DNA of 64,000 nt from an uncultured bacterium (GTDB lineage: Bacteria > JAGOEH01). The stretch lies in assembly GCA_964632485.1 (NCBI GenBank), contig CAZWDO010000019.1, positions 1 to 64,000 on the forward strand, in the 5' to 3' direction. Each line of letters opens with the position of its first letter. The stretch's first letter is position 1. Below are positions 9,370 to 30,140 of this stretch, one piece after another. Position numbers and translations under genes: made by a program. Below the pieces are notes generated by a model. That model was not told the origin of the DNA and did no database searches. It saw nothing but the letters and a program-made list of their open reading frames with translations.

Positions 9370-9760
9370 GTTTCGGGGGAAAGAAGAGAAGATAGAACCA
9401 CGAAACACACGAAATGCATGAAAAAAGGAAGAGCATACGTGGCGGAAGCGGGAGACGAGCCGCTCCATCAGCCGCCGGAGGTCGGCACGTTGGGAAGAAA
9501 AGAGAGGATCACGGAAGGGACGGGACACACGGATAGGATAGAAGATGGATTCCGGGCGCCAGCCGCACGGGCAATCGGAGTTCGGCATGACGGTGGCGGT
9601 GACCCAGGTGATCATCTTCCCGACACCAGGAAAATGGTCATCGGAGTTCGGCATGACGGAGGCGGTGACCCATGGATGCCGGGCGCGAGCCGCACTGGCG
9701 GTCAAGCCCGGAATGACAAATGAAGATGGATTCCGGGTCAAGCCCGGAATGACGGAAAGA
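9370..9760 (+). repeat. Non-coding cluster of REP-like elements also found inside phage genes
   Basis: Contains GAAGATAGAACCACGAAA, CCGCTCCATCAGCCGCCGGAGGTCGG and GATGGATTCCGGGTCAAGCCCGGAATGAC (9725-9753). Confidence 0.8.
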
Positions 9761-9913
9761 GGAAGAGCAGGCGGGATGGATGCGGGAGGAAACCGGTGTG
9801 GAGGTCGGCGCGCGGCGCCGATATTAGAGATAATACGGGAAGCGATATAGACAGGATCAACCGGGGGCGTTTCCGGGCGGACGCGCGGAGACGAACCAAA
9901 ACGAGATAGGAGG

Positions 9914-10492
9914 TCAGCGGGGCCGGCGGGCTTTTTTGAACTTATCGGGTGACGAAACCTTAGAGGGTATATCATCTTCGACGCGCAGTACAGCAAAGGG
10001 AGTCATCGTGAAACTTTTTACTACTTTGGGTTGGGCTTCGGGACTGACAAGGGGGAGGTCTTTTATTTTCAGGAGGAGTTTTTCGATATCGGAGCGGAGC
10101 TCCATGCGCTGGTCGGGGGACAATTGGCTCCATTTATCGAAAAGGGTTTTCAGGTTCCGCAGGTGGGATTCGGAGAAATCGGGAAGCGCGGCGCGAATTT
10201 TCTCCAGATCGGGCGCGGGCGGGGGCTCGGGCGGCGGTTTCGGCGGGGCGAGGTATTTTCCGCCCTGTCCGGTTAACAACCAATTAAGGTTGACTTTACA
10301 CTTTTGAGATATTTTGCATAAGGTGTCTGATCCTGGGGTGTTTTGTCTTGAAAAATAGTTGTTTAAAGTTGATAATTTTATCCCAACTAATGTTGCAAAC
10401 TTTTTCTGGCGGCCGTGTTCACTGCCGAAAAAATCGGTAATGAGTTCGTCGAGGCGGGAAAGAATGGCTTTTACGTCATAATTTGTGTTCAT
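9914..10492 (-). CDS. XRE/CI-type prophage repressor (no S24 peptidase domain visible)
   Basis: HTH QKKFATLVGIKLSTLNNYFS..VNLNWLLTGQG; divergent from the early operon. Confidence 0.85.
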   Translation of the reverse strand: MNTNYDVKAILSRLDELITDFFGSEHGRQKKFATLVGIKLSTLNNYFSRQNTPGSDTLCKISQKCKVNLNWLLTGQGGKYLAPPKPPPEPPPAPDLEKIRAALPDFSESHLRNLKTLFDKWSQLSPDQRMELRSDIEKLLLKIKDLPLVSPEAQPKVVKSFTMTPFAVLRVEDDIPSKVSSPDKFKKARRPR

Positions 10493-10653
10493 AAAACGCT
10501 GCGATTCGACACTCCAATCGGGTTTTTCACTTAAAATATAACATGTTTTTTTATCAAGTCAACATCAAAATACAGAATAAAAGCTGACAAAGCGGCGTAA
10601 ACGGCGGTAAATACACGGCGAAATCAAAGGATATATTTTTTTTCCAAAAAAAA

Positions 10654-10703
10654 TCTCAAAAGAGTATTTTTAACTTGACTTTGTCTCAAAAGAGTATTAT
10701 TTT
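10654..10703 (+). promoter_or_regulatory. Early promoter with duplicated operator
   Basis: TTGACT(10675)-17 bp-TATTTT. TCTCAAAAGAGTATT occurs at 10654 and 10684 (flanking the -35); related inverted site at 10298-10309. Confidence 0.7.
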
Positions 10704-10725
10704 AATATAAACAGGAGAAAGCACC

Positions 10726-11211
10726 ATGAAAACGGACGAGAAAGAATTGATTTTTGTCGCGCCGGTTCCGACGCTGACGGAGCTGGCTGAACGATTCGGG
10801 GTGAGCGTCGGTACCGTGGAGTACGCCTTGAGCCGGGGGAAGGGGCAGCGCGGGAGCGCGACGTCGGAGATCCGGCAATATGTGGCGACGCGGTGGCCGG
10901 AGCTGCTGGACGGCGGGTTCCGTCGGCGGACGCATCCGACGATGGCGGATCTGGCGCGGGAGTTCGGGGTGACCCGGGAGCTGGTACGGCAGATATGCAC
11001 GGGACGGATACAGGGGAAGAGCGGGAGTTCGGCGGTGATCCGGGATTATATTCTTGCGCGGTGGCCGGAGATGCTGAAGGAAGCGAAGCCGGCCAAACGG
11101 CGGGCGAGCCGTCGGTATCTGGAGGCGCGTCGGGCGCGGATACTGGAGAAACTGCGGCGTTTGCACGCGGAAGCGGACGCGCTGGAGACGCGGAAGCGGA
11201 GGGCCGGATGA
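10726..11211 (+). CDS. Ner/Cro-like regulator with two tandem HTH repeats
   Basis: PTLTELAERFGVS..RWPELL and PTMADLAREFGVT..RWPEML; GGAG RBS; first early gene. Confidence 0.75.
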   Translation: MKTDEKELIFVAPVPTLTELAERFGVSVGTVEYALSRGKGQRGSATSEIRQYVATRWPELLDGGFRRRTHPTMADLAREFGVTRELVRQICTGRIQGKSGSSAVIRDYILARWPEMLKEAKPAKRRASRRYLEARRARILEKLRRLHAEADALETRKRRAG

Positions 11212-11417
11212 TCGCGCGGGAGAGCCATGAACATTTGTGCGAGAGTTGCGGGCGTTTTCGTGCCGAGTTTCCGGAATGTATGCCGACAACGGTGTGTTTC
11301 GGGAACGGGATCGGGAAAGACAATGTGATCTACTGCGACAACTATGCGGAGGCGGCGCGGATCGCGGTTGCGGACAGCGCGAAAGGAAGCGAGAACAAGA
11401 AGCGAGGCGGAGACTGA
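11208..11417 (+). CDS. Small Cys-rich phage protein
   Basis: Start/stop overlaps with both neighbours; HLCESC..FPEC..DNVIYC. Confidence 0.55.
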   Translation: MIARESHEHLCESCGRFRAEFPECMPTTVCFGNGIGKDNVIYCDNYAEAARIAVADSAKGSENKKRGGD

Positions 11418-13876
11418 TGAGGGCTAAGGGAGACGCGGAAATCATGGCGGACGCGGGGGAGAGAGAAGAGAGAATCGCGGGCGAAGAAACACGGGCTGGA
11501 AGCCCATGCCACGGGGGGGGGTGGGTTTCGGTGCGGGAGTACGCGGAGCTGCGAGGTATCGGCGAACGCGCCGCGCGGATGCAAATCCAGCGGGGTCGGT
11601 TCGCGGCCTGCGATTTGCGGCAGGTAGCGGGGAATCGCGGCGGGAACAGCGGTTTTGTTTGGGAGATATGGACGGGTTTGAGCGGCGACGGGGGAAGAGA
11701 AGATAGAACCACGAAAACCACGGAAAGCACGAAAAGAGAAAAAGAAGATGGATTCCGGGTCAAGCCCGGAATGACAGAAAAAGAAAGAGCAGATGGACTG
11801 GCGGTCAAGCCCGGAATGACGGAGGGGGATGCGGAAGGAGACGATCCGCTCCATCAGCCGCCGGAGGTCGGGGCGTTGGGATATCCCGGCGGGGGAATCG
11901 CGGCGATCGCGGAAAGGCATCCGCGCCCGGGGACGGTGACGGGTGGGAAGAAAGATGGGCTGGAAGCGGAGGCGACGGCGGAGCGTTCGGGGCGGGAGAT
12001 TTTACTGGGCCCGGGGCAGCGCGTGGACGCCGGGGAGAACCGGAAGCGGCTGGCGGCGGCGGATTACCGGTATCTTGTCCGGATCCGGCACGAGCGGAAG
12101 GAGACGGCGCTGGCGGCGGTGTGCGGGCGGTATGGAATATCGAAAATGACGCTGAGGAGATATATGAAAGCTGAACTGAGCAACTTGAAGAATTCGCGGC
12201 GCGGCGGGGACGACCGAAACGTGATCCGGGTGAACGGGGTCCCGTTCCGGACGCAGTTGCCGAGCGCGGCGGTGGAATGGATCGTGTCGGAGAAGCTTCG
12301 GGACCCGCGGCAGACGGTTCGATTGATATACGACCGTTTGAGATCGCGGCTGGAGACGGGCGGTTTCGGGGGGAGAGAAGATAGAAGGGAGAAAACCACG
12401 GAAAGCACGAAAAGAGAAAGAGAAGATAGATTCCGGATCAAGTCCGGAATGACGGAGGGGGATGCGGAAGGGGGAAGACAGATGGGCTGGAAGCCCATGT
12501 CACGGGGCGGCGTTACGGCGGTACTGCATCTGCCGCGGGGGGATGAGTTTGCGCATTTTGAGCGGGCGCCTTCGGAACGGTCGGTGGAGCGGATCGTGGA
12601 GCAGATACCGGAGATGCTTATCGTGCGGGCTCTGGCGGGTCGCCGGGGTCTGGAAGCGAAAGCGGCGCCGTTTGTGTGCCGGAATTTGCTGGCGTACGAG
12701 GCACTTGAGCTGGTGGTGGGGGATCAGCACATTTTTGATTTTATCGTACAATTGGACGACGGGCGGTATATCCGGCCGGAGTCTTATATGTGGGTGGATA
12801 TGCGGAGCCGGATGTTTGTGGGGTTCGCGCCGTGTTTGTGGCATTACAACAGTTATGACGTGGCGAGTTCACTGATGCGGGTGTGCGCGAACTGGGGCTT
12901 GCCACAGGGGATTTATACCGATTGGGGGAAGAGCGAGACATCGAAGTACGTTGACGGGATATTAGAGCAGTTGACGGCGCATCAGACGACGGCGTACAGT
13001 TGGCGGGAGGTATCCGCGGCGACCGCGGAGATCACGCATGAGAAGGCGATCGTTCGGAATGCGAAGGCGAAGATCATCGAGGGGATGTTTGGAACAGTTG
13101 AGCGGTGGCTGTATGAGGAGTTGGGCGGAGTGGGATACTGCAAGCGGCAGTTGGACGGGCACGAAGACGAAGAGATGATCGCGGCGCTGAAGCGATCGAA
13201 GCGGCGCGGGGAGATATTGGGGTGGCGGGAGTTTTTTCAGGTAGTGATGCGAGTGCTGGACCGGTGGAACCGACATTTGATCGGGACGGATCGGATCGTC
13301 CCGGCGGAGGAGTTCGGGCGACGGCTGGCTCTGCTTGCGGCGGCGGGGACGCTGCGCCGTCTTGATGCGAGCGCGCTGCGGATGATATTTTTACCGGTGA
13401 AGCGGCTGAAGGTGCGCAACGGGATGGTGGGGTTGACGTTCGGACGGCAGGAAGTCGGATTGCGAGGGGGGGACTGCAAAGGCGCGCGGAAGTTGTTTCA
13501 AAGCGCGGCGCTGTCGCGGTACAGCGGGGAGTATGTGGATGTGCGGTGGAATCCGTACGACAGCAGCGAGGTGTATGTGTTTGATGTAGAAACGGGTGGA
13601 TTTTCGGGGATCGCGACGGCGTGGGAGCGGATCGATCCGCGGGATGGGGACGCGCTGGGGGAGAAGATGAGGACGAAGCGGGCGGTTGTGAGGGAATGGG
13701 AGCAGGTTTACCAGGAGTTTATAAAGGGGTCGGGCGCGGAGGATTTGTCAGGCTTGAGCGGTGTGAAGTTGGAATCGGCGGAGGCCATGGAGACGGCGCG
13801 TTTGGCGTCGGCGGATATGAAGCGGTCTGTTGCGGATGATCCGTTTTTGAAGCTGGTGATGGAGACGACGCTGTAA
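11417..13876 (+). CDS. Mu-like DDE transposase (MuA-like) with in-frame REP insertions
   Basis: N-terminal HTH WVSVREYAELRGIGERAAR; DDE triad VVGDQH / IYTDWG / KIIEGMF; Mu C-terminal motif VDVRWNPYDSSEVYVFD. Confidence 0.9.
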   Translation: MRAKGDAEIMADAGEREERIAGEETRAGSPCHGGGWVSVREYAELRGIGERAARMQIQRGRFAACDLRQVAGNRGGNSGFVWEIWTGLSGDGGREDRTTKTTESTKREKEDGFRVKPGMTEKERADGLAVKPGMTEGDAEGDDPLHQPPEVGALGYPGGGIAAIAERHPRPGTVTGGKKDGLEAEATAERSGREILLGPGQRVDAGENRKRLAAADYRYLVRIRHERKETALAAVCGRYGISKMTLRRYMKAELSNLKNSRRGGDDRNVIRVNGVPFRTQLPSAAVEWIVSEKLRDPRQTVRLIYDRLRSRLETGGFGGREDRREKTTESTKREREDRFRIKSGMTEGDAEGGRQMGWKPMSRGGVTAVLHLPRGDEFAHFERAPSERSVERIVEQIPEMLIVRALAGRRGLEAKAAPFVCRNLLAYEALELVVGDQHIFDFIVQLDDGRYIRPESYMWVDMRSRMFVGFAPCLWHYNSYDVASSLMRVCANWGLPQGIYTDWGKSETSKYVDGILEQLTAHQTTAYSWREVSAATAEITHEKAIVRNAKAKIIEGMFGTVERWLYEELGGVGYCKRQLDGHEDEEMIAALKRSKRRGEILGWREFFQVVMRVLDRWNRHLIGTDRIVPAEEFGRRLALLAAAGTLRRLDASALRMIFLPVKRLKVRNGMVGLTFGRQEVGLRGGDCKGARKLFQSAALSRYSGEYVDVRWNPYDSSEVYVFDVETGGFSGIATAWERIDPRDGDALGEKMRTKRAVVREWEQVYQEFIKGSGAEDLSGLSGVKLESAEAMETARLASADMKRSVADDPFLKLVMETTL

Positions 13877-13884
13877 AATGAGAA

Positions 13885-14137
13885 ATGAGAAGTCACATGG
13901 TTACCCATGGATTCCGGGTCAAGCACGGAATGACGAGGGATGGTTACCCATGGATTTCGGGTCAAGCCCGGAATGACGAGGGGCGGAGACGCGGAGATCG
14001 CGGAGTTGAAGAGAGCCGGCTGTACTTTGTACGTCCGCACGCCGGCTGGATGTGCGGCCGCGCAGGAATGGAAAAAAACCGAGAATCATGGGCAGTTCGC
14101 CCATGCCACGAAAGGAGACAAGAATGAGAAGTCATAT
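13885..14137 (+). repeat. REP cluster between the transposase and ATPase genes, flanked by ATGAGAAGTCAYAT direct repeats
   Basis: Two hairpin copies (13907, 13950) plus AGAGCCGGCTGTACTTTGTACGTCCGCAC and CCCATGCCAC units. Confidence 0.8.
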
Positions 14138-15152: not shown

Positions 15153-15256
15153 AGAAGAGAGCGGAAGTGATTGAATTTTTGTTAGCGGTATTATTGTCTG
15201 CGCTGATCTCTTCGGCGCTGGTGGGAATCGGGTATATTTTAGGGAACTGGCGGTGA
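15149..15256 (+). CDS. 35-aa single-TM protein
   Basis: AAGGAG RBS, ATGA overlap, MKKRAEVIEFLLAVLLSALISSALVGIGYILGNWR. Confidence 0.5.
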   Translation: MKKRAEVIEFLLAVLLSALISSALVGIGYILGNWR

Positions 15257-15259
15257 GGA

Positions 15260-15604: not shown

Positions 15605-15722
15605 TCGCGCGATGGAGGAGAAGTCACGCGGGGAGCCGCGGAGAAAGTTGAAGAGAGCCGGCTCGATGTGCGGCCGCGCAGGAATGGAAAAAAAAATCGA
15701 AAGGAGAAAGGAGAAATGAGCT

Positions 15723-15848
15723 ATGGCACGGACGAAAGAGATCGTAAAAAGCAAATTAGGAAACTGGGAGGATGTGAATGAGGCTCTGCGGCGAGTCGCG
15801 GAAGAGAGAACAATAGAAAAAAAGGAGATGCGACATGGCATGGCGTAA
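15723..15848 (+). pseudogene. Truncated Gam-like N-terminus (41 aa)
   Basis: MARTKEIVKSKLGNWEDVNEALRRVAEE resembles Gam-family N-termini; has an RBS. Confidence 0.5.
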
Positions 15849-16758
15849 CGGCAACGGAGAGTTTCGGAATCGACTCGGAATCCTGTCGGAGGATGAGGTA
15901 CGGGCGATTGAGTCGGAGTTCGCGGCGGGTGTGAAGATCGAGCGGATCGCGTCCGGGCACGGGCTTCATCAGAAGGACGCGAGCGCGATTCACAATATTC
16001 TGTTGAAACCGGCCAAGGTTATCCTCGCGAGTTTGAAGGATATGGACGGCGCGGCGAAGCGCGGCGATATCCGGGAATATCAGAAGCCGGTTTTGGCCCG
16101 GTGCCCGGGCCTGGTTCGGTATATCCGGAACCAGGTTCCCCGGGAAGGGACTTCCGCGGCTGCGGAAGGCGCTGGGACGACGATATCGAAGCCGGTGACG
16201 GTGACGGTATGTTTTGACGGTGAAGATGTTCGGGTGACGATCCCGCGCGAGACGCTTCTGCAGTTGTCGAGCATGGAACGGGGCGCGGCGTCGGCGGCGG
16301 TGGAAAGAAGAGAAGATAGAAGGGAGGAAACCACAGAAAACACGGAAAAAGAAAGAGAATACGGGGAAGAGAAGATAGAACCACGAAATACACGAAATAC
16401 ACGAAATACACGAAAGGAAAGAACAGAAAGAGAGATAGAAGCAAGGGATGTCTCACCGGCTGAAATGATTCAGCCCGCGGGGGCGCCCGCATATCGCATG
16501 ACGACGGGGGCGGAGCGAGTGTTGCTGTTTCTGGCGGAGCGGGCTCGAAATCATCCGGGATGGCAGAGCTATACGCTGGCGGAGCTTTCGGAGCTCGTTG
16601 GACTTACGGAAAAACAGGCGCGGTATGCGCGGGAGAAACTGGAAGAGGCGGGCTTGATCGATTCGGTGTTGGCACCGACGCGGAAAAATGTGGCATATCT
16701 GGTAACGGAATCGGGCATGGAATTGGCCGGTTCGCTGAAAGAAAGGAACCAAGCATGA
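15835..16758 (+). CDS. DNA-binding protein with a C-terminal winged HTH and a repeat-derived linker
   Basis: TLAELSELVGLTEKQARYAREKLEEAGLI..YLVTESG; repeat insert at about 16305-16415. Confidence 0.7.
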   Translation: MAWRNGNGEFRNRLGILSEDEVRAIESEFAAGVKIERIASGHGLHQKDASAIHNILLKPAKVILASLKDMDGAAKRGDIREYQKPVLARCPGLVRYIRNQVPREGTSAAAEGAGTTISKPVTVTVCFDGEDVRVTIPRETLLQLSSMERGAASAAVERREDRREETTENTEKEREYGEEKIEPRNTRNTRNTRKERTEREIEARDVSPAEMIQPAGAPAYRMTTGAERVLLFLAERARNHPGWQSYTLAELSELVGLTEKQARYAREKLEEAGLIDSVLAPTRKNVAYLVTESGMELAGSLKERNQA

Positions 16759-17210: not shown

Positions 17211-17428
17211 TGTAGCGGATCGAACGCGGATAACCGGAGCTGTCGGGAAACGGCTCCGGAGATGCGGGTTTGGGCGTGGGAAGAGAAGATAGAACCACGA
17301 AAACCACGAAAGCACGAAAAGAGAAAAAGAAGATGGATTCCGGGTCAAGCCCGGAATGACGAGGGTTGATTACCCATGGATTCCGGGTCAAGCCCGGAAT
17401 GACGATGGACGGATTACAAGAGGAGATT

Positions 17429-17650: not shown

Positions 17651-18199
17651 ATGAAAGAGAAGGCGAAGTCGGCGGCGATCACGCCCGGCCAGGTCAGTCA
17701 TATCTGGGCGCTGACGCGGAAGGAGCTGGGTTTCGACAGCGAATGGCTGTACGGGTTTTTGGAGACGAATTTCGGAGTGGAGCGACTGCATGAACTGGAC
17801 GCATCAACGGCGAACCGCGCGATAGACGCGCTGCGGCGTCTGTGCGGGAAGGAGAGATCGAGCTGGCGGATCACGGCGGCGCAGATCGGGGCGATCGGGC
17901 ATCGGTTAGCGGAGCTGCATATCACGGATTCGGGGGCTCGGAAGCTATGCGCGCGTGTGTCGCGGGGCCGGGTTGAGGAATGGCGGTGGCTGGGGTGGCA
18001 AGAGGCGCGGGGACTGATCGCGCTGCTGGAGAAGCTTCGGCAGGCGAACGCGGCGCGTTCAAGCGGTGGCCATGGCCTCAATGCAAGGGAGGAAAGCGGA
18101 GAGAAGATAAAACCACGAAACACACAGAAAGCACGAAAAGAGAAAGAGCATACGACGGAAAGAGGAAGCGAAGATAGAATGTCGGCGGGTGTCGGATGA
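17651..18199 (+). CDS. GemA (Mu gp16)-like regulatory protein
   Basis: ITPGQVSHIWAL..LGFDSEWLYGFL..LDASTANRAIDALRR..ITAAQIGAI..EARGLIALL. Confidence 0.75.
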   Translation: MKEKAKSAAITPGQVSHIWALTRKELGFDSEWLYGFLETNFGVERLHELDASTANRAIDALRRLCGKERSSWRITAAQIGAIGHRLAELHITDSGARKLCARVSRGRVEEWRWLGWQEARGLIALLEKLRQANAARSSGGHGLNAREESGEKIKPRNTQKARKEKEHTTERGSEDRMSAGVG

Positions 18200-18864
18200 C
18201 GGAACGGGATTTGAACGTTCGTCCGGATACGGGCTGGGACACGCATGTGAGAGACGATCACACCGCTCGGGAGAACATGGATTTTGTTTTATGGAAATGC
18301 GTCATGAATGCGTCGGGGATGCCGCGGGATATTCGGGAAGATGCTATGAAACTTTTATGCGAAAGATGGGCTGGAAGCCCATGCCACGGCCACGGGGCAC
18401 TTATGTCGTAACGAAAGGAGTCGATATTATGCGTTTGCTTTTTGTCAGGTGGTATGATGCGCATCGGTTTTTATTGCCGGTCGCGGCGACATTTGGTATG
18501 GTCCGTAATCCGCCGCAATTCAGGAACTGGACGTTGGCGCTGGTGATCGGGATAGAGGCGTTGAACTGGAGTTTGGCGCTGGTGATCGGGTTTGAGCGCG
18601 GTAGCGTTATCGGAGCAGACGGCGGAGAGGCAGGGGCGCATGAACAGAGATGAGCGAGCGGCCTGGGTTCGAATTTTGCGGCTGGCGATCGAGAAACGAA
18701 TTCTCTGGTGGCGGATGGAGATGCTGTACCGTAATGTACGGATTAATGTAAAACCTACTGATTTCGGGAAGAGGGAGTTGGAGCAGCTAAGCGATGTTAG
18801 GGTTGTGTTGACAAGGGATGGNNNNNNNNNNGCAGGAAAGGCAGCCGATGTCGGAAACGGATAA
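18196..18864 (+). CDS. Three small coupled hypothetical ORFs (18196-18411, 18429-18653, 18640-18864)
   Basis: RBSs or overlaps; the second has a duplicated NWxLALVIG; the third spans an N gap. Confidence 0.45.
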
Positions 18865-19200: not shown

Positions 19201-19300
19201 GAAGCCGCGGAGAGCCGGCTGTACTTTGTACGTCCGCACGTTGCAGAGAAAGTTGAAGAGAGCCGGCTGGAAGCCGGCAGCGTACAGGAAAGGAGCAGGC

Positions 19301-20635
19301 ATGAATTACGGTAAGGTATTGAAGGCGCGAGTGGCGGCGGATCGGCTATTGGGTCCGGAAGCGCTGTCGATGCTACTTGCGGCGCGACTGGGAACGGAAA
19401 TAGCGGCTGGGGTGGAGACATTCATGACGACGGCGGTGGGCGAGATAGCGCGGGTCGATTTTTCGCGGGGGGTCCGTCGGCGATTGGACTGGTTTCGTCG
19501 GGCCTTGGGCGATGCGATGGAAAGCCGCGCAGGAGTGGCGGGCGCGTTGATTCGCGAGTATGCGCGCCGCGCGTACGCCCGCGGGAAAAGAGAAGGAGAA
19601 AAATTAAGAAAAAGCGAGGAACCCGGGGGTCTGCAGTTTGGTTTCAATACGAAGGATGAACGCGCGCTTGCGGCGCTTGAGCAGTATGCGCGGAAGTTTT
19701 TGAGCGCGTACTATTCCGGGTGGGGGGAATTCGGTTCGAGCGCGTCGGAGATATTGGCGGAGTTGTTGCAGCGATATTATGAAGAAGGCATGACGGATGA
19801 GGAACTGTCGGAGGAGTTGGGACGGAAGCTGGGCGACTATGCGCAGGAGATGCAGACGAAGATGAAGACGGCGGTAGGGCATTGGATATTCAAGCTGGCG
19901 CAGTACGGGAGCGTTGCGGGCTATGAAGCGTCCGGGATCGAATATGCGGAGGTAGTGGCGGTGATAGACTCCAAAACGACGGATATCTGTCGTCGGATGC
20001 ATGGTCGGATTATCCCGGTGGGGGCGATGCGGGCCCAGTTGGATTCGGCGCTTTCTGCCGGTGGGACGGGTGAAGGCCTGGAGCGGACGCATCGGATGTT
20101 TTCGCAGAAGGACTGGAAGGAGAAACTGTCCGGGCTGAGCTCGACCGCGGATTTGCTGCGCGCGGGGGCGATCATGCCGCCGTATCACTTCAACTGCCGG
20201 ACGCGGACGGTGGCGTATTTCGAGCCGGGCGGCTTCAAGGGCTACAGCCGCGCGAGGGGCGAACGAGCGAAAGAGGGGGGACTGACGGATCAGGAGATCA
20301 AAAACTTTTCCGATGAACTGGGGCGACGGGTGAAGGAACGGAAACTTTATTGGGAGCCGGGGCGGTTGGAATCGCACGCGCGTGATCATGCAAAAGAGTT
20401 CGGCCTGGAGAAAGGGGACGCGCAAGGGTATGAAAACAAACTTTATGAATTGCTGGAAAATGCTGGAACGCCATTGATGAATCTATACAAAGGACATGTT
20501 CAGTTTGCATTTCAACAAGGGAGATATATCATTGTTGTCGCTGAAGGTTATTTTTTTAAATCGGGATTCGAAAACTCAAAACAATTTTTTGAGAGAGAAT
20601 TACTCGGTAGGGGAATTTATATTTCTGAAAGGTGA
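19301..20635 (+). CDS. MuF/SPP1 gp7-family minor head protein with a C-terminal extension (putative toxin)
   Basis: AVIDSKTTDICRRMHG and MPPYHFNCRT, followed by about 135 extra aa containing LESHARDHAKEFG. Confidence 0.85.
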   Translation: MNYGKVLKARVAADRLLGPEALSMLLAARLGTEIAAGVETFMTTAVGEIARVDFSRGVRRRLDWFRRALGDAMESRAGVAGALIREYARRAYARGKREGEKLRKSEEPGGLQFGFNTKDERALAALEQYARKFLSAYYSGWGEFGSSASEILAELLQRYYEEGMTDEELSEELGRKLGDYAQEMQTKMKTAVGHWIFKLAQYGSVAGYEASGIEYAEVVAVIDSKTTDICRRMHGRIIPVGAMRAQLDSALSAGGTGEGLERTHRMFSQKDWKEKLSGLSSTADLLRAGAIMPPYHFNCRTRTVAYFEPGGFKGYSRARGERAKEGGLTDQEIKNFSDELGRRVKERKLYWEPGRLESHARDHAKEFGLEKGDAQGYENKLYELLENAGTPLMNLYKGHVQFAFQQGRYIIVVAEGYFFKSGFENSKQFFERELLGRGIYISER

Positions 20636-20954: not shown

Positions 20955-21443
20955 TTAAAACATATCGAGTTGCCTTGGCGGCAACATTGGCAAATCTCTT
21001 ACCTCGATATAATTTTTGGCAAATTTTATTATATGATTGTGGTCATGACTATATATGCATTTGGCTTTGTGCCCAACTGCTGTCGCCAAAACTAACAGAT
21101 CATTTCTTAACTCTCTTTTTGTTAAATTCATTTCATCTTTATGCTCATATAACTGTTTATATTCATTTGAATTATGCAGTTGCATATAGTATTTTCCGCA
21201 CAATTGATCGTAGGGAGCAATCATGAATCTTGAGCTCAGATCGCAGACAAATTTATCATACGCATCATTTATTTTAATCGAAGCCTCCGTCACAACTATT
21301 GCCGGAATAATTATTTTTTCATCTTTCAGTTCGGTGTCAATAAGATAACGAGCTTGCTCAAGCTTTCCCAAATCATGTTCTTTTGCTTGATTTAAAATGC
21401 CCCATATTACGATATTTGTATCAAGACATACGATACCTTTCAT
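20955..21443 (-). CDS. PIN-domain (VapC-like) nuclease
   Basis: VCLDTNIVIW, IPAIVVTE, DLLVLATA, IYSHD acidic quartet. Confidence 0.85.
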   Translation of the reverse strand: MKGIVCLDTNIVIWGILNQAKEHDLGKLEQARYLIDTELKDEKIIIPAIVVTEASIKINDAYDKFVCDLSSRFMIAPYDQLCGKYYMQLHNSNEYKQLYEHKDEMNLTKRELRNDLLVLATAVGHKAKCIYSHDHNHIIKFAKNYIEVRDLPMLPPRQLDMF

Positions 21444-22195
21444 TATTCACCCCTGATTTCGTTAACATATTCATCCGGATTAATTTTATCAAAATAGTGG
21501 CCGTAATTTCTTCTCAGATATGAAAACGCTTCAGAAACCGGCGTTTCCTCATAGGCTAAAAGTTCATCCATTTCAAACTCTTTTATTTGATCTGTTTCCA
21601 AATCCCATTTGGCTGTCCCTGACAATCCTACAAATTGATAAAGTCTTTTCCCGAGTTCTTGGGCTTTCTCTTTTGATACAGCAAACACAAGCGTTTCAGC
21701 ATCCATTATCTTCATTGTAATTTTTATATCGGTAATCCCACCAACACTCATTATTGTCCCATAGATTTGAGTTGCACCCATTATTAAACTCTCCCGTTCC
21801 TGATACAAAATTTCATCTGGCTTGATAGTGTATTGTTGATTGTTATACATGGCCGTCAATGATATGTTTCTCTGTTTTGCATGTTCGACACAATCTACAA
21901 ATGGTTTTTGGAGTTGCTTCGGTAATTGTGTTACATCTTTTGAAGCTATGGTTGAACAAAAACTATTAAAAATCATTGATGAAATAATCAGTGACGATGC
22001 AAAGGTTATTTTCAGACAATTTGATTCAACGCCCTGAAGGACTATTAGTTTATCTTTATCAAATTTTTGAGTGTCCTCTTTGGCGTAATTACTGGCGAAA
22101 GTGTAAAATTTATTGATGAAGTCAGCTATGTATTTAGCGCTGGTATTTTCGAGAGTGATATTTTCACCATCGAATACTATCTCAATTCTTTCCAT
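21443..22195 (-). CDS. 250-aa partner of the PIN nuclease (putative antitoxin/sensor)
   Basis: TAATG coupling to PIN; AT-rich; C-terminus INPDEYVNEIRGE; promoter TTGACA-17-TATTTT at 22243-22215. Confidence 0.7.
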   Translation of the reverse strand: MERIEIVFDGENITLENTSAKYIADFINKFYTFASNYAKEDTQKFDKDKLIVLQGVESNCLKITFASSLIISSMIFNSFCSTIASKDVTQLPKQLQKPFVDCVEHAKQRNISLTAMYNNQQYTIKPDEILYQERESLIMGATQIYGTIMSVGGITDIKITMKIMDAETLVFAVSKEKAQELGKRLYQFVGLSGTAKWDLETDQIKEFEMDELLAYEETPVSEAFSYLRRNYGHYFDKINPDEYVNEIRGE

Positions 22196-22281
22196 CCTTC
22201 CCGCCTTTTAGCTTAAAATACAAAAGCGGTACAAAAATGTCAATAGCGAATATTTTTTTGTCAAGAGATTTTGAAAAAAAA

Positions 22282-22710
22282 TTATACTTTCCTGACCGAG
22301 AGGCCGGGTATGGCGGCGAGTCGGGATTCGATTTCGTTGCGCACGTCGGCGGGGAGATCGGGGAACACGGAAGCGGCGTCGCTCCGGAAGCGGTTTTGCG
22401 CGATTTCGACAGCTTTGGAGAAATATGGATTTCCTTTCTGGAAGACTTTTTTGACGGGATGGGCGGCGCCGCGCCAGTAGAGAGCTTTTTTGTTTTTAGG
22501 GCGCAGGACGCCGCCTGGGAGACCGGCGGTGCCGAAATGTACCATGGCGGCGTATTTTTTGTTGGTTCCGACAATGGCGCCGAAATTTTGAGCGGTCAGG
22601 ACGACGATGGATCGGGCGAGCTGGCCTGTTTTTTTGGGAACAGTTTCTTTGATTACGATGCGTTCGATATAGTGGGCCAGGCGCATGGCGATCTGCTGCC
22701 GGTCGATCAT
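22282..22710 (-). CDS. Virion morphogenesis protein (Mu gpG / HK97 gp10-like)
   Basis: PKKTGQLARSI..VGTNKKYAAMVHFGT..NPYF. Confidence 0.8.
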   Translation of the reverse strand: MIDRQQIAMRLAHYIERIVIKETVPKKTGQLARSIVVLTAQNFGAIVGTNKKYAAMVHFGTAGLPGGVLRPKNKKALYWRGAAHPVKKVFQKGNPYFSKAVEIAQNRFRSDAASVFPDLPADVRNEIESRLAAIPGLSVRKV

Positions 22711-23876
22711 AGTATTGCCTTGAGGAATTTTTTGAGGTCGGCGTCGCCGCCGGAAGAGGACGCGTCGGTCGCGGGAGCGGAGATCGGCGAGTTCGTGTTC
22801 CCGGCGGCGATGTTTTCGGATTTGTACCAGGGCGGCTTGTTGAATCTGAAGTCCGGCGAGAGCCCGGCGGGGGCGAGGATGTCGAGGTTGATGACGTTTT
22901 CGTAATATTCCTGGATGGGAGATATGGCGAATTCGATGAACATGTTCATCTGTGATTTGGCTTCGTCGCCGCCGCCGAGCTGACCCGCAGCCATGACGCC
23001 GACGAGTCTCGGCGGTACGCCGTGGCTGCAGATGATTTCATCGCGGGTTTGGGTGTATGGTTTTTCGAGGGCGAATTTTTCGAGGTCCGGGGTGAGGGTG
23101 AGAGTGGTGATGGAAGCTTTTTCGGAAGGGGCGGCGATGACGGCGGATTTGTGGGCGTTAGCGACGCCCTTGTTGTTGCGGAGGGCGGCGGAGAGTTTTT
23201 CTTCGGCTTTTTCGGCGAATTTGCCGCCGGTGAGGAAGATGAGGAGGTCGGGCAGCGCGTTATTGTCGAAATACCCGGAAAGATAGAGTTTCATTTGCCG
23301 GTCGAGGCGGAGCGATTCGAGGGAGTAATTCCATTCAGGAACTCCATAGAGGGATGAAAGCGGAGTGTATTGACGGAAATGGCATAGCTGAGATGGGTTT
23401 TCTGATCCGAAGGCTCCGAATCGGATGCGTTTAGCGTCGGTTTCCTGAATGAAGGAGTAGTCGGGATAGATGTAGCAGGTCCATGCGGGGACGTGGTATA
23501 TTTCGCGGATGATTCCCTTGATATCGCGTTCAATTTCGACAAAAGAATTTCCAAACAGTAGGTAGTCGAAGATAGAGTTTTTGAGGAGTTCGAAGAAAGG
23601 AATTTCTTTAGAGATGTCCTCGAGGTATTTGAGTGACGCGGGGGAAGCCGACGCGCCGTAGGCGGTTGCGACGGAAGATTTAAGCGTGAGACACCGTCCG
23701 TGGTAGGCGTTTGCCGTCGAGTTTTCGAAGAGAGTTCCATAAGAAATTGGCGGCTGAACGATTGAGGAGAAGGCAGGATCGGCGTCGATGGGCGCGGAGA
23801 TTTTGGCTTTGAAAATGGGTTGCGCCGCCGCATGGTGGAAGAGTTGGTGAATATCGAGATTTTGAGAATTACGCAT
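22707..23876 (-). CDS. Portal protein, PBSX/P2-Q family
   Basis: DYLLFGNSFVE, YTPLSSLYGVPEW, YFDNNALP, RDEIICSHGVPPRLVG. Confidence 0.88.
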   Translation of the reverse strand: MRNSQNLDIHQLFHHAAAQPIFKAKISAPIDADPAFSSIVQPPISYGTLFENSTANAYHGRCLTLKSSVATAYGASASPASLKYLEDISKEIPFFELLKNSIFDYLLFGNSFVEIERDIKGIIREIYHVPAWTCYIYPDYSFIQETDAKRIRFGAFGSENPSQLCHFRQYTPLSSLYGVPEWNYSLESLRLDRQMKLYLSGYFDNNALPDLLIFLTGGKFAEKAEEKLSAALRNNKGVANAHKSAVIAAPSEKASITTLTLTPDLEKFALEKPYTQTRDEIICSHGVPPRLVGVMAAGQLGGGDEAKSQMNMFIEFAISPIQEYYENVINLDILAPAGLSPDFRFNKPPWYKSENIAAGNTNSPISAPATDASSSGGDADLKKFLKAIL

Positions 23877-23879
23877 AGC

Positions 23880-24105
23880 TTTAGCTCCTGAGGGGAAAGG
23901 TTTAAGATTATTCCTGGCGCGGGAGAAACAGGGCGGAATGACATAAAATAAACAATATTTCTATAAATAATATATAAATAAAAATAAGTATGTGTTTTAT
24001 ATAAATTAAAATTATTATAGTCGAAAAAAGGAAGACAGAGAGCTGGCTGGAAGCCGGCTGCGCAGGGAAAGTCAGGCAGAAAGAAAGCGCTAACAAAAGG
24101 AGAGC
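23880..24105. promoter_or_regulatory. AT-rich divergent late control region
   Basis: About 90 bp of near-pure A/T (23940-24030) between the divergent portal and protease-capsid genes. Confidence 0.55.
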
Positions 24106-24108
24106 AGC

Positions 24109-25864
24109 ATGAAGAAACGGTTGACGGACATCCAAGTGAAATTTATTTCGCTTGTGCGAAAGGCGGCGAATAAAAAAGAACTGATCTGGAAGAGCAGCGA
24201 TGAGACGCCGGTTTTCAATCGGGACGTGAAGATCGTGAAAAGCGACGAGAAGCGAATGGTGTATGGGATCGTGTATTCACCGAATGAGGTGGACGCGCAT
24301 GGGGAATTTGCGACGGCCGGGGATATTGAAGCGGCTGCGATGGATTTTATGAAGAATCTGCGCAATCTGAACGTGGATAAGGAACATAGTTTCCAGAGCG
24401 AGAAAGCGGCGATCGTGGAGAGCTGGATCGTGAAGAGCGAAAAAGATGAGCTGACGGGGGCATCGAAAGGTTCGTGGTGCGTTGGTATCCATATCGAAGA
24501 CGCTGGATTGTGGGATGATGTCAAGAAAGGCGAGCTGACGGGCATTTCGATGGCCGGATATGCGGTGAAGAAATCGGAAGATGACGCGGATACCGATGGT
24601 GAGTCTCGGGATGCGGCTGGCGTTCTGAAGAAGGTGAAAGGGATGTTCGAGAAGCTTCTGAAGTCTGTGGAGGGCTTGAAGGGTTCGGACGGCGGCTCGG
24701 AGTGGGGCGGCGGCGAGCTGCTGAAGGCTACGGAAAGCGTGGTGGATCGAATTGATAAGAAGCTCAAAGAGCTGGGCGAAGGTGGCGCGAAAGGAGAGGA
24801 AATGAAGAAATTGTTACAGGATGCGACAGCGCAGTTGGAGAGATTTGAAAAGGCCGGTGTTTTCAGCAAGCGGAGCGCGGGCGTGGACGAAGGCAGCGGG
24901 GCGAGCGGTGTCGCGGGTAAAGACGACTACAGTATCATATTGAAATCGGATGAAGAAGTGATTGTTCCCATGCGTAAAGCGGGTCCGATTACACCGCAGA
25001 GTCAGCGTATCGGTGGCGCGTTGAAGTCGCAGGCCAGCGCCAAGATCATTGATTTTGTGATGAAGCAGGATTTATTTTCGGCAGTGTCCACGCAGCGTTC
25101 GCAGAAATTGATCCGGGACATTGACGTATTTTCAATACTGCGTCGGGTGATTACGCGGATCCCGCAGGGCCAGTCTCCGGAGTTGTTTGTATCGTCTTCG
25201 AACGTCGGTCGGCAATTCGTGATGAAGGAAGTCGATCTGTTCGGGCAGATTATGTTTGATGCGATCTGGGACAATCAGGACAATGCGAATTTTGAGAACG
25301 AGAAGGCGCAGGAATTTTTGACGGCGATCAGCGAAGATTTAAAGTTGTTAGCGTGGGAAGGCGTGAACGACGACAACAGCGACGGATTCGCAACGCTGAA
25401 CAAGGGGTGGCTGCAATTAGCGCGGGACGCAGGGTGCGCGAAGCTGACCGTCGCGGATTACATGTCTGGCGATACGGTGAGCTGGATCGAGCTGATGAGC
25501 GATATGCTGAAGGATTTGCCGACGCATTTTAAATCGTCGCTGGTGAAGTATTTTATGAACCAGTCTGACTATGAGCAGTATGTTAAGCAGATGGGCGGAC
25601 TGGTCTCAGGCAGCGCTCAGGATATTAAAACGGGATCAGTAGAGACGTATATGGGGTATTCGATTTTTCACGCGGGTTATATTCCCAGCGGCAAATTGAT
25701 GCTGGTTCCGGCTCCGAATCTGGCTTTTGGGATTAATACGGACGTCCAGCGGTATCGAGAGGAGAAGGGCGCTGAACGGTGCGTGAACTATACGTTTGTG
25801 GCGAATGTGGATTACCAGATCGCGGTTCCGGATGCGATCGTGTNNNNNNNNNNACGCCGAATAA
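24109..25864 (+). CDS. XkdF-like prohead protease fused to scaffold and major capsid protein
   Basis: FISLVRKAANKK, VYGIVYSPNEVDAHG, ELTGISMAG; capsid-like DLKLLAWEG..TLNKGWLQ..PAPNLAFGI. Across the N gap it reads DAIV|YAE* (TAA at 25862). Confidence 0.8.
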
Positions 25865-25885
25865 GACGACGCGGGGACAGCGGAG

Positions 25886-26365: not shown

Positions 26366-26382
26366 TAATGAAAGGAACGGAT

Positions 26383-26943: not shown

Positions 26944-26989
26944 TTGGAGACGGCTGAACTTTGTACGTCCGCCCGGGCAAAATGTCCGA

Positions 26990-27115
26990 ATGGCGAAAAA
27001 CGACGGGAAAAGGCGTTTTAAGCGCAGAGGAAAAACAATCCGTGTTCAGGGTCGTTTTTTTAAATTGAACACGATTTGAACACGATTGAACGGGAAATTA
27101 TTGATTTTAACGTTG
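26990..27115. promoter_or_regulatory. Near-central non-coding site with phased TTGAACAC repeats (possible gyrase-site analogue)
   Basis: ttgaacacgatttgaacacgattgaac; about 1.1 kb from the prophage midpoint. Confidence 0.4.
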
Positions 27116-27197
27116 GGTCGGGCCGCGAGAAGCGAAATGGGCTGGAAGCCCATGCCACTTTAGGCTGGAAGCCCATGCCACATAAGAAGAGGAAAAT

Positions 27198-27668
27198 ATG
27201 AGCGAGAGCATCGAGAGGAAAATCAGGGCTGAGATCGAGCGGCGCATTCTGGAGCTCTATCCGGAATACGCGACGCGGGGCGGCCGGGGGGTTCGCGGCA
27301 GGAACTTTCTGGTGGTTATCGCGGAGCGGCGGGTGAATTTGAATTATATGCCGGAACCGTCGCTCGATGATTCGGCAGCGCTGGTTTCGGCGGAAGTGGA
27401 CGCGACAGTGGGAGTGATATTTTACGCGGCGGAAGACGAGGCGCTGGATGTGGAGCCGTTCATGCGGTCGCTGCTGCTGTATCCTCGCATCGAGGACGAA
27501 GCGGGCGCGGAGATCGCTTTGGTTCGGCTGCCGATCACGACGGCGATCCTTGAGGGATCGACGATGGATCGGGAATATGTTCAAATTCCGATCCGCTATC
27601 GGTATGCGGGGGATTTTGCTCCCGCGGAACTGGTTTTGCTGGAGAGGATGAAGGAGGAGGAGCGATGA
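27198..27668 (+). CDS. Putative tail-completion protein
   Basis: Size and position upstream of the tail tube gene. Confidence 0.45.
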   Translation: MSESIERKIRAEIERRILELYPEYATRGGRGVRGRNFLVVIAERRVNLNYMPEPSLDDSAALVSAEVDATVGVIFYAAEDEALDVEPFMRSLLLYPRIEDEAGAEIALVRLPITTAILEGSTMDREYVQIPIRYRYAGDFAPAELVLLERMKEEER

Positions 27669-28003: not shown

Positions 28004-28018
28004 CAAGGAGACACAATT

Positions 28019-28885
28019 ATGGCGAATGTACAGGACCAACTTTCCCGGGCGCTTGCGGGACCGGGAACGGTGTATATTCAGCGATACGTTTCGGAGACGG
28101 AACTGTCGGCTGATCAGGTTATTTTAAGCGCGTTGAAAGACGGGATCGATTTCAAGGCCACGCTGGACAAATTAGAAGTGAGCGCGGATTCGTGCTATGC
28201 TCCGATTGACGAGTTTATTTCTGGCATCAAGGGGGATGGCGAACTGGTTTTGTTGGACGTGGACGCGGAGATGATACATCAGTTTCTTGGCGGGACGCTG
28301 GTATCGGAATCGGGCACGGAGAACCGAGGGGTGAAGTTTTATCAGACGGATGTGGAGAACGCGGCGGTGACGGCGCGGGTGAAGTTCGTTCCCAAATCGA
28401 CCAAAGCGGCGGGGAAAGGCGTGATCCTCTATCGGTGCAAAGTTTCGATTTCGGAGTTGAACATGGGCATGAAGCGCAGCGAATTGCGTTCGTACAAAGT
28501 AACGATCAAGCTTCTGGAACCACCGGTCACGACCCCGGCGACGCCGTATTTTTATGTCGGCGCGCTAACGCTGGCTGAAGTGGATGCGCCGAGCGCGACG
28601 ACTTCGGCGGCTTCTTCGGTGGGCGCGGACGAGGCGACGATGAATGGTTCGGTAAATCCGAACGGCTCTTCGACAGTGGTGAAGTTCGAATGGGGCGAAA
28701 CAGTCTCATACGGGAACGTGATTACGGCGGCGGAAAGCCCGGCGACGGGGTCGTCCGCAGTGAGCGTGAGCGCGTATATCGGCGGGTTGGAAGCGGAAAC
28801 GGCGTATCATTTTCGCTGCGTGGCATGGTCGGACGGCGGCTTGACGGTGGGCGCGGATGCGACGTTCACGACCACGGCCTCCTAA
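28019..28885 (+). CDS. Major tail (tube) protein with a C-terminal FN3 domain
   Basis: LAGPGTVY..GIDFKATL tube-like N-terminus; FN3 ATMNGSVNPNG..FEWG..GLEAETAYHFRCVA. Confidence 0.75.
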   Translation: MANVQDQLSRALAGPGTVYIQRYVSETELSADQVILSALKDGIDFKATLDKLEVSADSCYAPIDEFISGIKGDGELVLLDVDAEMIHQFLGGTLVSESGTENRGVKFYQTDVENAAVTARVKFVPKSTKAAGKGVILYRCKVSISELNMGMKRSELRSYKVTIKLLEPPVTTPATPYFYVGALTLAEVDAPSATTSAASSVGADEATMNGSVNPNGSSTVVKFEWGETVSYGNVITAAESPATGSSAVSVSAYIGGLEAETAYHFRCVAWSDGGLTVGADATFTTTAS

Positions 28886-28958
28886 GCGAGAAGGGGTAAG
28901 GATGAAGAGAGCCTGGCTTGCAGCCGACTGGACAAAATATTCTGTGAAAGGGGCAAAG

Positions 28959-29489
28959 ATGAAACGGAACTGGAAAGCGGCGTTATGCGCGGCGGTGGGT
29001 TTCGCGCTGCTGATCGCGCTGTTCGGGGGGTTTTCCCGATCCCGGGCGGACGGCGGGCCGCGAGTGATCAACTGTAATGAGAGCAATCGGTACCTGGAAG
29101 GGATCGACTCGGCGACGGTTCAAGTGAACGCGGATACGATGCGGCGAGTCGGGACGAAGACGGGCCGGGAGCTCGTCGGCGTGGAGCTGACGATTTCGAA
29201 AACGGGCGGCCGGGTGCATCTGGCGCCGACCGAGGGCCTTTCCTTCCTCACGGGGGTGGTTTATGGCTATGCCGGAGGGTTGGACGGGTTTTCGCCAGGC
29301 GCGGGGATGACGGACACGCTGGAGTCTCGGCTGATCGCGCTGGATAGCGCCCTCGATCGCGGGGTTCGGCTGAGCTGGCCGGTGTCGGACGGAGTGTCGA
29401 AACTGCGGCTGGAAGGCGTGGGGCTGATGAGTGGGGATACGGTGCGCGTGTGGGCGGTTCCGGCGTATTCGCCCGCGCCAGTCCGGTAG
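28959..29489 (+). CDS. Signal-peptide/TM-anchored hypothetical protein
   Basis: MKRNWKAALCAAVGFALLIALFGG. Confidence 0.55.
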   Translation: MKRNWKAALCAAVGFALLIALFGGFSRSRADGGPRVINCNESNRYLEGIDSATVQVNADTMRRVGTKTGRELVGVELTISKTGGRVHLAPTEGLSFLTGVVYGYAGGLDGFSPGAGMTDTLESRLIALDSALDRGVRLSWPVSDGVSKLRLEGVGLMSGDTVRVWAVPAYSPAPVR

Positions 29490-29600
29490 GGACGGACGGC
29501 TGGGATGTGGAGCTGGCTGGGATTTTTGCGCCCGCGGAGTCTGCGGGACTGGATTATGTTCGTAACGGCAGGGTATACAATAATTAAAAGGAGTTTACAA

Positions 29601-29918
29601 ATGATTAAATTTATGCAACTGATCGGGGCGCTGATTGCGACGCTTCCGCTGAAGATCATGCAGGCGTCGGAAGACAAAATTATCACGCTGGACGAGTTTT
29701 TGCAGCTCGCGCGATCGACGGCGAAAGGGCTGGGTTTCGAGGAAGCGCGTATCGCCCGACTGAGCGATCCGGCGGCGTCCGCGATCCTCTCGGGAGCGGA
29801 ACGGATCGCAGCCGCGGCTGCTGACCGCGAGCTGACGGCGGATGAAGTTTTCGGTATTCTGGAAGAAACGGTTCGCGCAGCGGGACTGGGCAATATCAAG
29901 CTGATCGGGCTGAAATAG
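29601..29918 (+). CDS. Hypothetical protein with an internal repeat (ITLDEF / LTADEV)
   Basis: AAGGAG RBS. Confidence 0.55.
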   Translation: MIKFMQLIGALIATLPLKIMQASEDKIITLDEFLQLARSTAKGLGFEEARIARLSDPAASAILSGAERIAAAAADRELTADEVFGILEETVRAAGLGNIKLIGLK

Positions 29919-30140
29919 CCGCGAGTTTGGTGTCGATTTCGGTTGTTTCGGCGGTTTCGGCGTTTATGGGTCGCCCCTCGGTTCGGCATGGGGATCGGGG
30001 GGCGGCGCAGAAATGCGGATGCGGGGGGAGGAAGAGAAGATGGAAGGGAGGAATACACGAAATACACGGAAGTCGCGGAAAGAGAAAGAGCAGATGGATT
30101 CCGGGTCAAGCCCGGAATGACAAAAATCGGTGCGGAAGGT

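Follow-up and report, generated by a model that had tools for sequence, protein, structure and literature searches.

Why should the early and middle part of a transposable phage be crowded with short palindromic repeats, all pointing the same way and some of them translated? The question is raised by a 64,000-nucleotide stretch of DNA from an uncultured bacterium (GTDB lineage JAGOEH01; assembly GCA_964632485.1, contig CAZWDO010000019.1, positions 1 to 64,000 of the forward strand; hereafter the window), in which a first, sequence-only reading had noticed at least five types of short repeat, here called modules A to E, all on the plus strand between 9,370 and 30,121. Judged by its Pfam and PHROG gene set, a Mu-like transposable prophage spans 8.95 to about 42 kb of the window, and the repeat-bearing region is its early and middle part. 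The reading favoured here, to which a probability of about 60% is attached, is that the spacers and protein linkers of this prophage hold hairpins of known classes of repetitive extragenic palindromic (REP) sequences, that these are selfish or near-neutral, and that their single polarity would come from strand asymmetry.

The genes recognised by Pfam and PHROGs are a CI-type repressor on the minus strand, a helix-turn-helix (HTH) protein, MuA (DDE_2 and Mu-transpos_C), a MuB-like AAA protein, Mor, GemA, MuF, a protease/capsid fusion, an SLT lysozyme, TerL and a tape measure protein. The combination by which a Mu-like phage is recognised (a DDE MuA, a MuB-type ATPase, a divergent repressor, Mor, GemA and MuF) is present, and MuA occurs once in the whole genome. 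The GC content of the prophage is 55-62% (58% overall) and that of the host contigs averages about 43.5%.

Two classes of hairpin and their spacers

All five modules were recovered on the plus strand, at or near the places first given for them and with none expected by chance. Their arrangement in the window is as follows.

9374 to 9780, plus strand: non-coding patch from the left end to the 3' end of the repressor gene, with B, E, two other short repeats, a long-form A and a full A
11237 to 13876, plus strand: open reading frame (ORF) of the MuA-type transposase, 879 codons as listed (Pfam DDE_2 and Mu-transpos_C, homologue alignment, AlphaFold2)
11493 to 11512, plus strand: C hairpin, likely in the MuA 5' leader, reading as a GTGG-tagged REP on the minus strand
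11682 to 11880, plus strand: in-frame block 1 in MuA (residues 149-215), with B, A, half-A and E
12360 to 12510, plus strand: in-frame block 2 in MuA (residues 375-425), with a B variant, an A variant (12425-12453) and C (12484-12503)
13906 to 14110, plus strand: intergenic array between MuA and MuB, with A, A (43-nt period), D and a C variant; the MuB ATG is at 14125
15634 to 15700, plus strand: D-head variant after the Mor gene, from repeat comparison
16298 to 16425, plus strand: two B units, in frame in ORF 15835-16758, between its N-terminal part and its C-terminal HTH
17267 to 17403, plus strand: intergenic B-A-A array, from repeat matches
18086 to 18182, plus strand: B unit forming the C-terminal tail of the GemA-like ORF (17651-18199), from repeat match and Pfam
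18368 to 18387, plus strand: C hairpin; the ATG at 18429 lies 41 nt downstream
19211 to 19284, plus strand: D followed by a D-head that carries a C-like hairpin (GCCGGCTGGAAGCCGGC); the MuF-like ORF starts 17 nt further on, at 19301
24038 to 24066, plus strand: C-like hairpin (GCTGGCTGGAAGCCGGC); the protease/capsid ORF starts about 45 nt further on, at 24109
26945 to 27181, plus strand: D variant with a tandem pair of C hairpins, ahead of the ORF that starts at 27198
30022 to 30121, plus strand: last B-A unit, ahead of an ORF for a small membrane protein (ATG at about 30141)

No repeat module was found in the prophage beyond 30121, as had been said of its tail-end third. The 29-mer of module A matches eight sites with at most three mismatches, all on the plus strand (9725, 11747, 12425, 13906, 13949, 17332, 17375 and 30093; chance expectation 0), and extra copies in 3'-half or long form lie at 9690 and 11793. 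The eight full copies agree with the sequence-only reading, and the further one that it placed at 11792 is the 3'-half copy at 11793. Read on the minus strand, the module is (C/T)GTC-ATTCCGGG-CTTGA-CCCGGAAT-CCA, that is, an 8-bp stem starting with AT, a 5-nt loop and a CCA tail, preceded in seven of ten copies by CGTC and in three by TGTC. The predicted fold has an energy of -14.0 kcal/mol as RNA (z -3.5) and -8.8 kcal/mol as DNA (z -4.4). Both variable stem positions change on both sides (outer pair T-A 28, G-C 13; inner pair G-C 28, A-T 15), in counts for which the genome copies were pre-selected for at least five of six pairs, which favours pairing. The compensatory G-C to A-T change noticed in copy 12425 is real and double, and it recurs at several host sites; the copy represents a subfamily, not a private mutation.

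In the main text of the survey by Di Nocera, De Gregorio and Rocco (2013, PMC3733652), CGTC-tagged REPs, which include Neisseria dRS3 and Rickettsia RPE-4 and RPE-6, have a CGTC or TGTC tag (CCTC being allowed), an 8-9-bp stem starting from A-T pairs, a 4-5-nt loop and a CCA-like tail. Module A resembles them in tag, stem, loop and tail alike and on these features is classed as a CGTC-tagged REP, so the description of the modules as REP-like fits what is published of the class. A strict detector (GTC, a perfect 7-bp stem starting with AT, then C), with the genome read backwards as control, found 107 hairpins genome-wide and six in the control. The host has 99 of them (53 plus, 46 minus) and the prophage eight, with the tag strand always minus, so that density is 0.24 per kb in the prophage and 0.022 per kb in the host, a difference of about 11-fold and far from the equality that would have spoken against the sequence-only reading. 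None of 86 true-family host copies lies inside an ORF of at least 120 residues, and here too the phage differs, with copies in frame in MuA; 34 of the 86 lie between co-directional genes, 26 between convergent and eight between divergent ones, and 18 at contig edges. The host copies in this respect resemble published CGTC REPs, which are mostly intergenic, although translated intragenic copies and clusters of tens of residues have been described (PMC3733652). The present case departs from that class in that the repeats lie in a phage, are about 11 times as dense as in the host and share one polarity; the survey gives head-to-head dimers as the rule and calls head-to-tail arrays negligible. Such dimers do not predominate in host or prophage: adjacent pairs share orientation in 27 cases and oppose it in 12 in the host, and the single prophage pair has the same orientation. 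Tandem arrays of CGTC hairpins with a 38-39-nt period were also observed in the host (contig C6, 231424-231680, six units; contig C3, 232938-233033, three units).

The flanks of module A, GTC 5' and C 3' of the palindrome, agree with those of the Neisseria NTS, where they matter for the nuclease SsnA (Chenal et al. 2025, PMC11893778). The likeness to NTS and the Ssn-related motifs (SRMs) extends to the many copies in the host and to a host gene for a 95-residue, single-domain GIY-YIG protein flanked by hairpins on both sides. This gene (contig C3, 232637-232924; Pfam GIY-YIG, 63.9 bits) is the only small one of its kind in the genome, has one hairpin of the same family as A upstream and three downstream, and its product has about 8000 homologues of similar length; attempts to name it gave one weak, sub-threshold match in NCBIfam and none in a PDB sequence search. 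The class as set out in the main text of PMC11893778 is marked by strand-specific nuclease cleavage of a single-stranded motif and by a protein in CDD cd10448. Against SRM membership stands the observation that the published degenerate SRM pattern has no match in the prophage and, genome-wide, 23 matches against 16 in the backwards control, the A stem having one C fewer than the pattern requires. Because the literal pattern fails, the placement rests on architecture and on the gene association, which suggest that A is of the NTS/SRM-like class that accompanies the Ssn GIY-YIG single-strand nucleases, the host gene being the predicted nuclease. The present system also differs from NTS in that the phage has no nuclease gene and in that NTS rarely lies inside genes (2%). 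The search for a mobilising gene that the sequence-only reading had proposed turned up this small Ssn-type gene in the host chromosome and no RAYT. With no match to RAYT or Y1_Tnp in a genome that is 97.95% complete, a RAYT can be ruled out as mobiliser of the repeats.

Module C belongs to the other great REP class. It has five matches, all on the plus strand and all five where they were first reported (11493, 12484, 18368, 27139 and 27162), with variants at 11949 and 14082. On the minus strand it reads GTGG-C-ATGGGCT-TCC-AGCCCAT, with a 7-bp stem, a GGA loop and a GCCAC tail as seen on the plus strand. GTGG is a named variant of the GTAG tag (PMC3733652), and on its tag C is assigned to the GTGG-tagged REPs of the GTAG superfamily. 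It is like the GTAG REPs and REPINs that are served by RAYTs in its GTGG tag, 7-bp stem and 3-nt loop, and its metagenome copies are mostly inverted doublets. It departs from them here in several respects, being confined to the phage, standing singly or in direct doublets, mostly a short way ahead of starts, in a genome without RAYT; neither the RAYT gene nor the many copies in the same genome by which such families are recognised were found. Five of its seven genomic matches are in the phage and the other two are weak, and at least 121 metagenome stretches contain the exact 20-mer. Of the distinct metagenome copies among the matches listed, 60 of 81 have an inverted GTGGCA-type partner no more than 60 nt away, as against none of the five window copies. 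Module C is common in environmental metagenomes and foreign to the present host, and the phage carries both great REP classes, one of them foreign to that host.

The remaining modules lie between the hairpins. Module B, rich in purines, periodic at 9 nt (NCACGAAAN) and usually found 5' of A, has five matches with at most three mismatches, all on the plus strand (9388, 11699, 16371, 17285 and 18103), and diverged copies at 12363, 16298 and 30022; its first-noted positions held and the copy at 16371 is additional. Its five exact 18-mer matches in IMG/VR are at chance level, none of them extending. Of the D copies first proposed, those at 14012 and 19211 are exact and the one at 26945 is 84% alike, and the sites near 15650 and 24040 have no more than the head GAGAGCCGGCT in common with them and differ in their inner segments, which makes D itself a mosaic. 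It has no match in metagenomes. Both proposed copies of E are exact (9460 and 11846). B, D and E do not occur elsewhere in this genome and, from their sequences, appear as phage-private spacer modules shuffled with A and C in a mosaic like the Neisseria intergenic mosaic elements (NIMEs) or bacterial interspersed mosaic elements. As in NIMEs, which are built of dRS3 and RS modules (PMC3898611), CGTC-type hairpins are interleaved with other modules in shuffled order, but here the mosaic lies in a phage, its modules are phage-private and all co-oriented, and it is partly coding.

Repeats inside proteins and in other phages

That many of the repeats are translated in frame proved to be an overstatement. 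Four blocks lie within ORFs (two in MuA, one in ORF 15835-16758 and one at the C-terminus of GemA), the rest being intergenic, and in all four the frame of the ORF is the sole stop-free one. In-frame REPs of both classes are known in bacteria, including clusters encoding 43-82 residues (PMC3733652), and such examples thus extend well beyond those of Rickettsia, which had been cited at first. When MuA is aligned with 11 homologues (25-30% identity overall), its N-terminal winged helix, second HTH and DDE core are homologous and in a single frame. Block 1 falls in a linker of variable length, with no equivalent sequence in nine of the 11 homologues and unrelated long inserts in the other two (P0016 and P0019), and block 2 is extra with respect to all 11. 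An AlphaFold2 model of MuA, shallow in that it was built from a 12-row alignment and has a mean confidence score (pLDDT) of 61.7, folds residues 96-147, 265-377 and 443-830 confidently and gives pLDDT below 50 over residues 148-264 and 378-442, the stretches holding blocks 1 and 2. The two blocks are thus predicted to lie in disordered linkers between folded domains.

The true start of MuA is probably near 11530, just 3' of the C hairpin at 11493. Module C is read in different frames, as RAGSPCH at 11493 and as MGWKPMS at 12484, and the conserved entity is therefore a DNA or RNA hairpin and not a peptide; nothing was found to support the suggestion of host-protein mimicry. A public-collection MuA protein, P0001 (701 residues), starts at ORF residue 179 (window 11771), within a hairpin A, at ATGAC, and this start omits the N-terminal DNA-binding domain present in homologues. 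Gene callers can evidently mis-start genes at such repeats, as with P0001, and the essential phage proteins MuA and MuF tolerate repeat-encoded linkers.

The same pattern is found in other phages. The 23-nt core of A occurs at 19 IMG/VR loci, among them V1 (locus L043; 16.2 kb, classed as a provirus), with 24 hairpins forward and none reverse, and its relative V2 (8.5 kb), with none forward and 12 reverse. V1 is Mu-like, with MuA (6286-8553), a MuB-like gene (4863-5612) and a MuF-like gene (1-1689) all on the minus strand and TerL (9528-10838) on the plus strand, and it is distant from the window phage (TerL 43% and MuF 26% identical, MuA without a tblastn match). Its hairpins are in frame as RHSGLDPES in MuA (three), MuF (eight) and another ORF (three), the three in MuA lying in the linker that directly follows the N-terminal domain, as they do in the MuA of the window. 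V1 and V2 are 92% identical over 4 kb and differ by indels of repeat-unit size, 57 nt and 51 nt (9+42), which within the MuF ORF preserve the reading frame. This fits ongoing gain and loss and so the active short-repeat process suggested at the outset. Two further features of V1 were observed: a 9-nt unit repeated about nine times at about 8300-8390, read as (DAT)n in the N-terminal linker of MuA beside the hairpins, and a second hairpin module of 42-47 nt (read LASSERSEHGRQE) that alternates with the CGTC hairpins throughout. A third Mu-like contig, L062, has a B-like run and then a hairpin array directly after MuA, on the G-rich strand. No GIY-YIG gene was found in V1, V2 or L062, which are fragments, 13-34% complete. 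Across the set of 150 further Mu-like loci (2.15 Mb) to which L062 belongs, hairpins are rare, with 21 found against seven in the control, and identical 20-26-mers are present in unrelated bacterial chromosomes.

Polarity and its competing explanations

All window copies are co-oriented, as had been reported, but the orientation does not simply go with transcription. The hairpins of the window lie on the coding strand, whereas those of V1 face early genes encoded on the other strand, and because V1 hairpins oppose gene direction it is the G-rich strand, not transcription, that the orientation tracks. The strand bearing A in its ...GGAATGAC reading is G-rich in both, its GC skew ranging from +0.24 to +0.36 in the window (across 10-30 kb of the prophage) and +0.21 to +0.35 in V1, and the skew of the hairpin strand in L062 is +0.24. 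Of 11 other IMG/VR loci, nine have a single orientation, with positive skew on the hairpin strand in all nine, and two have inverted pairs; 11 singleton loci have high GC and long open frames on both strands. With A on the G-rich strand, the tag-sense strand, which is the one reportedly cut by SsnA, an enzyme that leaves the reverse strand uncut (PMC11893778), is on the C-rich strand, and the GTGG tag of C likewise has its strand on the C-rich strand of the phage.

An important consideration is what process could yield a single polarity in phages that need not share a direction of transcription. The hairpins may be selfish or near-neutral elements that come into phage DNA and persist solely at harmless sites, either between genes or in disordered linkers in the one stop-free frame, where they would be translated. 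Their polarity would most likely arise from the strand asymmetry of single-stranded DNA in a phage replicated in one direction, and two routes can be envisaged. Elements might insert into single-stranded DNA with fixed polarity, or copies exposing the cleavable strand might be eliminated by the host nuclease. Insertion with fixed polarity is familiar from the IS200/IS605 insertion sequences. A bolder extension, put forward tentatively and at present doubtful, would make Mu-like phages one-way traps and shuttles that carry single-strand-hairpin REPs of both classes between distant hosts, with one polarity since one phage strand would be the exposed single strand during replicative transposition.

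Several observations weigh against this account. The independent phage lineages are few (the window phage, V1/V2 and L062), and among the nine singly oriented loci several skews are weak (0.04-0.07) and some loci share a contig or a sample. In the host, hairpin orientation has no link with GC skew (59 versus 60 clusters) or with gene direction (15 with, 19 against), and because a general replication-coupled rule predicts such a link, its absence counts against the polarity mechanism. Strong skew is confined to the early halves of the phages and does not extend over whole genomes, a distribution that fits a purely replication-driven skew poorly. C hairpins near at least six gene starts also fit a regulatory role. 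Finally, unitigs break at the hairpins and leave the joins across the repeats without independent confirmation.

The position of the C hairpins also speaks for a different explanation, by which the modules would be the phage's own control at the level of RNA, the start-associated hairpins setting translation, mRNA stability or processing and the B-A units stopping antisense transcription; co-orientation would then follow from function in transcripts. C or C-like hairpins lie 16-46 nt upstream of six starts (those of MuA, MuB, ORF 18429, MuF, protease/capsid and ORF 27198), D heads recur ahead of operon starts, every window module is on the coding strand, three B-A units are the top terminator-like matches on the minus strand, and bacterial REPs are themselves thought to be RNA elements (PMC3733652). 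The V1 hairpins, however, are antisense to the genes, with up to eight copies in one ORF, close relatives differ in copy number, the 20-26-mers recur in unrelated bacterial chromosomes, and terminator-like sites overall are at chance (21 versus 20.1). Binding of CsrA to the GGA loops of C was considered and ruled out, there being no CsrA in the genome. Oriented intergenic repeats near gene starts, like the C hairpins, are known in mycobacteriophages as stoperators and start-associated sequences, which differ in being phage-specific protein-binding or translation signals and not bacterial REP families. Taken together, control at the RNA level is unlikely to account for the modules.

It is less probable still that the hairpins serve the phage against a host Ssn-type or other single-strand nuclease, as binding decoys or as sites for processing its own DNA. 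The 11-fold density, the agreement of strict polarity with the reported strand specificity of SsnA (PMC11893778) and the presence of the nuclease gene in the host and not in the phage fragments would all suit such a role. The strand bound by a decoy, however, must be exposed and yet the tag strand lies on the C-rich strand, the second class, C, has no partner nuclease in the host, and the 150 other Mu-like loci are nearly free of hairpins.

Least credible is an artefact or decay, in which short reads were mis-joined at repeats or a dead prophage filled passively with host repeats: unitigs break at every hairpin at a depth of about 3-6, the gene order is odd, with a portal gene in a minus-strand island (20955-23944), and no right end was found, but MuA has its domains in order and in one frame on either side of both blocks, every block within an ORF is read in the single frame that is open, the rest of the genome has no copy of B, D or E and no more than two weak matches to C, independent IMG/VR contigs share the pattern, and the phage retains its 58% GC and pronounced skew, which sets it apart from an old resident. 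A DNA run that may come from the source sample contains 0.89 of the words of the stretch, and its contigs, which end at hairpins, cover 30 of 30 bins over 9-20 kb; no RNA run containing the stretch was listed. The structure is argued to be real because MuA keeps its domain order and frame and the independent IMG/VR contigs are alike.

The prophage in its host and the significance of the repeats

Three further features complete the map.

8959 to 9283, plus strand: left-end arrays of an 11-nt unit, AGTGTTCAAGG, in 5-7 copies and a 14-nt unit, GTGTTCCTCAATCG, in about seven copies
9914 to 10492, minus strand: CI-type repressor gene (Pfam HTH_3 and Phage_CI_repr)
58949 to 59015, no strand assigned: inverted pair of CGTC-type hairpins in the host flank, near-canonical NTS-type, outside the prophage

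The left-end arrays are likely binding sites for the transposase or the repressor. No inverted counterpart of them was found at the right end within the window, and the right border of the prophage is set solely by the fall in GC near 41.6-43.3 kb. The host hairpin first noted at about 58951 belongs to the pair listed above and so has an inverted partner.

The island at 20955-23944, of lower GC and on the minus strand within an otherwise plus-strand prophage, contains a PIN-domain gene, a gene for an unknown protein of 250 residues and a portal-protein gene on the opposite strand, and may be an insertion or rearrangement. Three tandem paralogues of the C-terminal 270 residues of the MuF-like ORF (window 19829-20632), 54-77% identical, lie on contig C34 (1-3034) and may be spare C-terminal cassettes for the domain fused to MuF. 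Directly after the prophage, a low-GC block (36-45%) at 43818-55514 carries large plus-strand genes, namely a 1224-residue unknown, a region with DNA methyltransferase matches (47503-50154), a helicase (50154-52955) and unknowns of 612 and 254 residues; from its gene content it looks like a restriction or defence island and not phage tail genes. Masked runs of 10 N, six in number (window 2104, 18822, 25844, 32841, 50962 and 59862), break several ORF translations.

The organism is phylogenetically isolated, with one of 40 other genomes matching it at the level of family and one at that of order, and the prophage DNA has no match in those 40 genomes offered as relatives. Close phage relatives that could define empty sites were not found in IMG/VR by MuA peptide patterns. 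A word-indexed protein search with MuA returned only the MuA protein itself, and in an exhaustive search the best non-self match was 40% identical, over the core.

The pattern is real and striking, and although its repeat types are of known kinds, their density and common direction are unusual for phages. The CGTC/NTS class, the GTAG class, their mosaics with other repeats and in-frame copies are all already in print. In the literature consulted, including term searches in the main texts of PMC11893778 and PMC3733652, no description was found of such repeats packed densely into transposable phages with a single polarity that tracks the G-rich strand instead of transcription and with a host-foreign REP class among them. 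The word 'phage' does not occur in the main text of PMC3733652, and in that of PMC11893778, where a phage role of NTS is undiscussed, its lone mention concerns a recombinase targeting dRS3. For CGTC-type REPs, including NTS and SRM, the 2013 survey found no transposase (PMC3733652), and the 2025 work supplied a partner nuclease and no mobility mechanism (PMC11893778).

If the doubtful view of Mu-like phages as one-way traps and shuttles were true, it would explain both the identical 20-26-mers across phyla and the presence of a REP class foreign to the present host, and such phages would be natural reporters of how transposase-less CGTC REPs move. Hairpin-packed phages are in any case a compact system in which to ask whether the single-stranded state of one strand or the other governs insertion or survival, with the useful features of a single polarity, a copy number that varies between close relatives and an orientation that follows strand composition.

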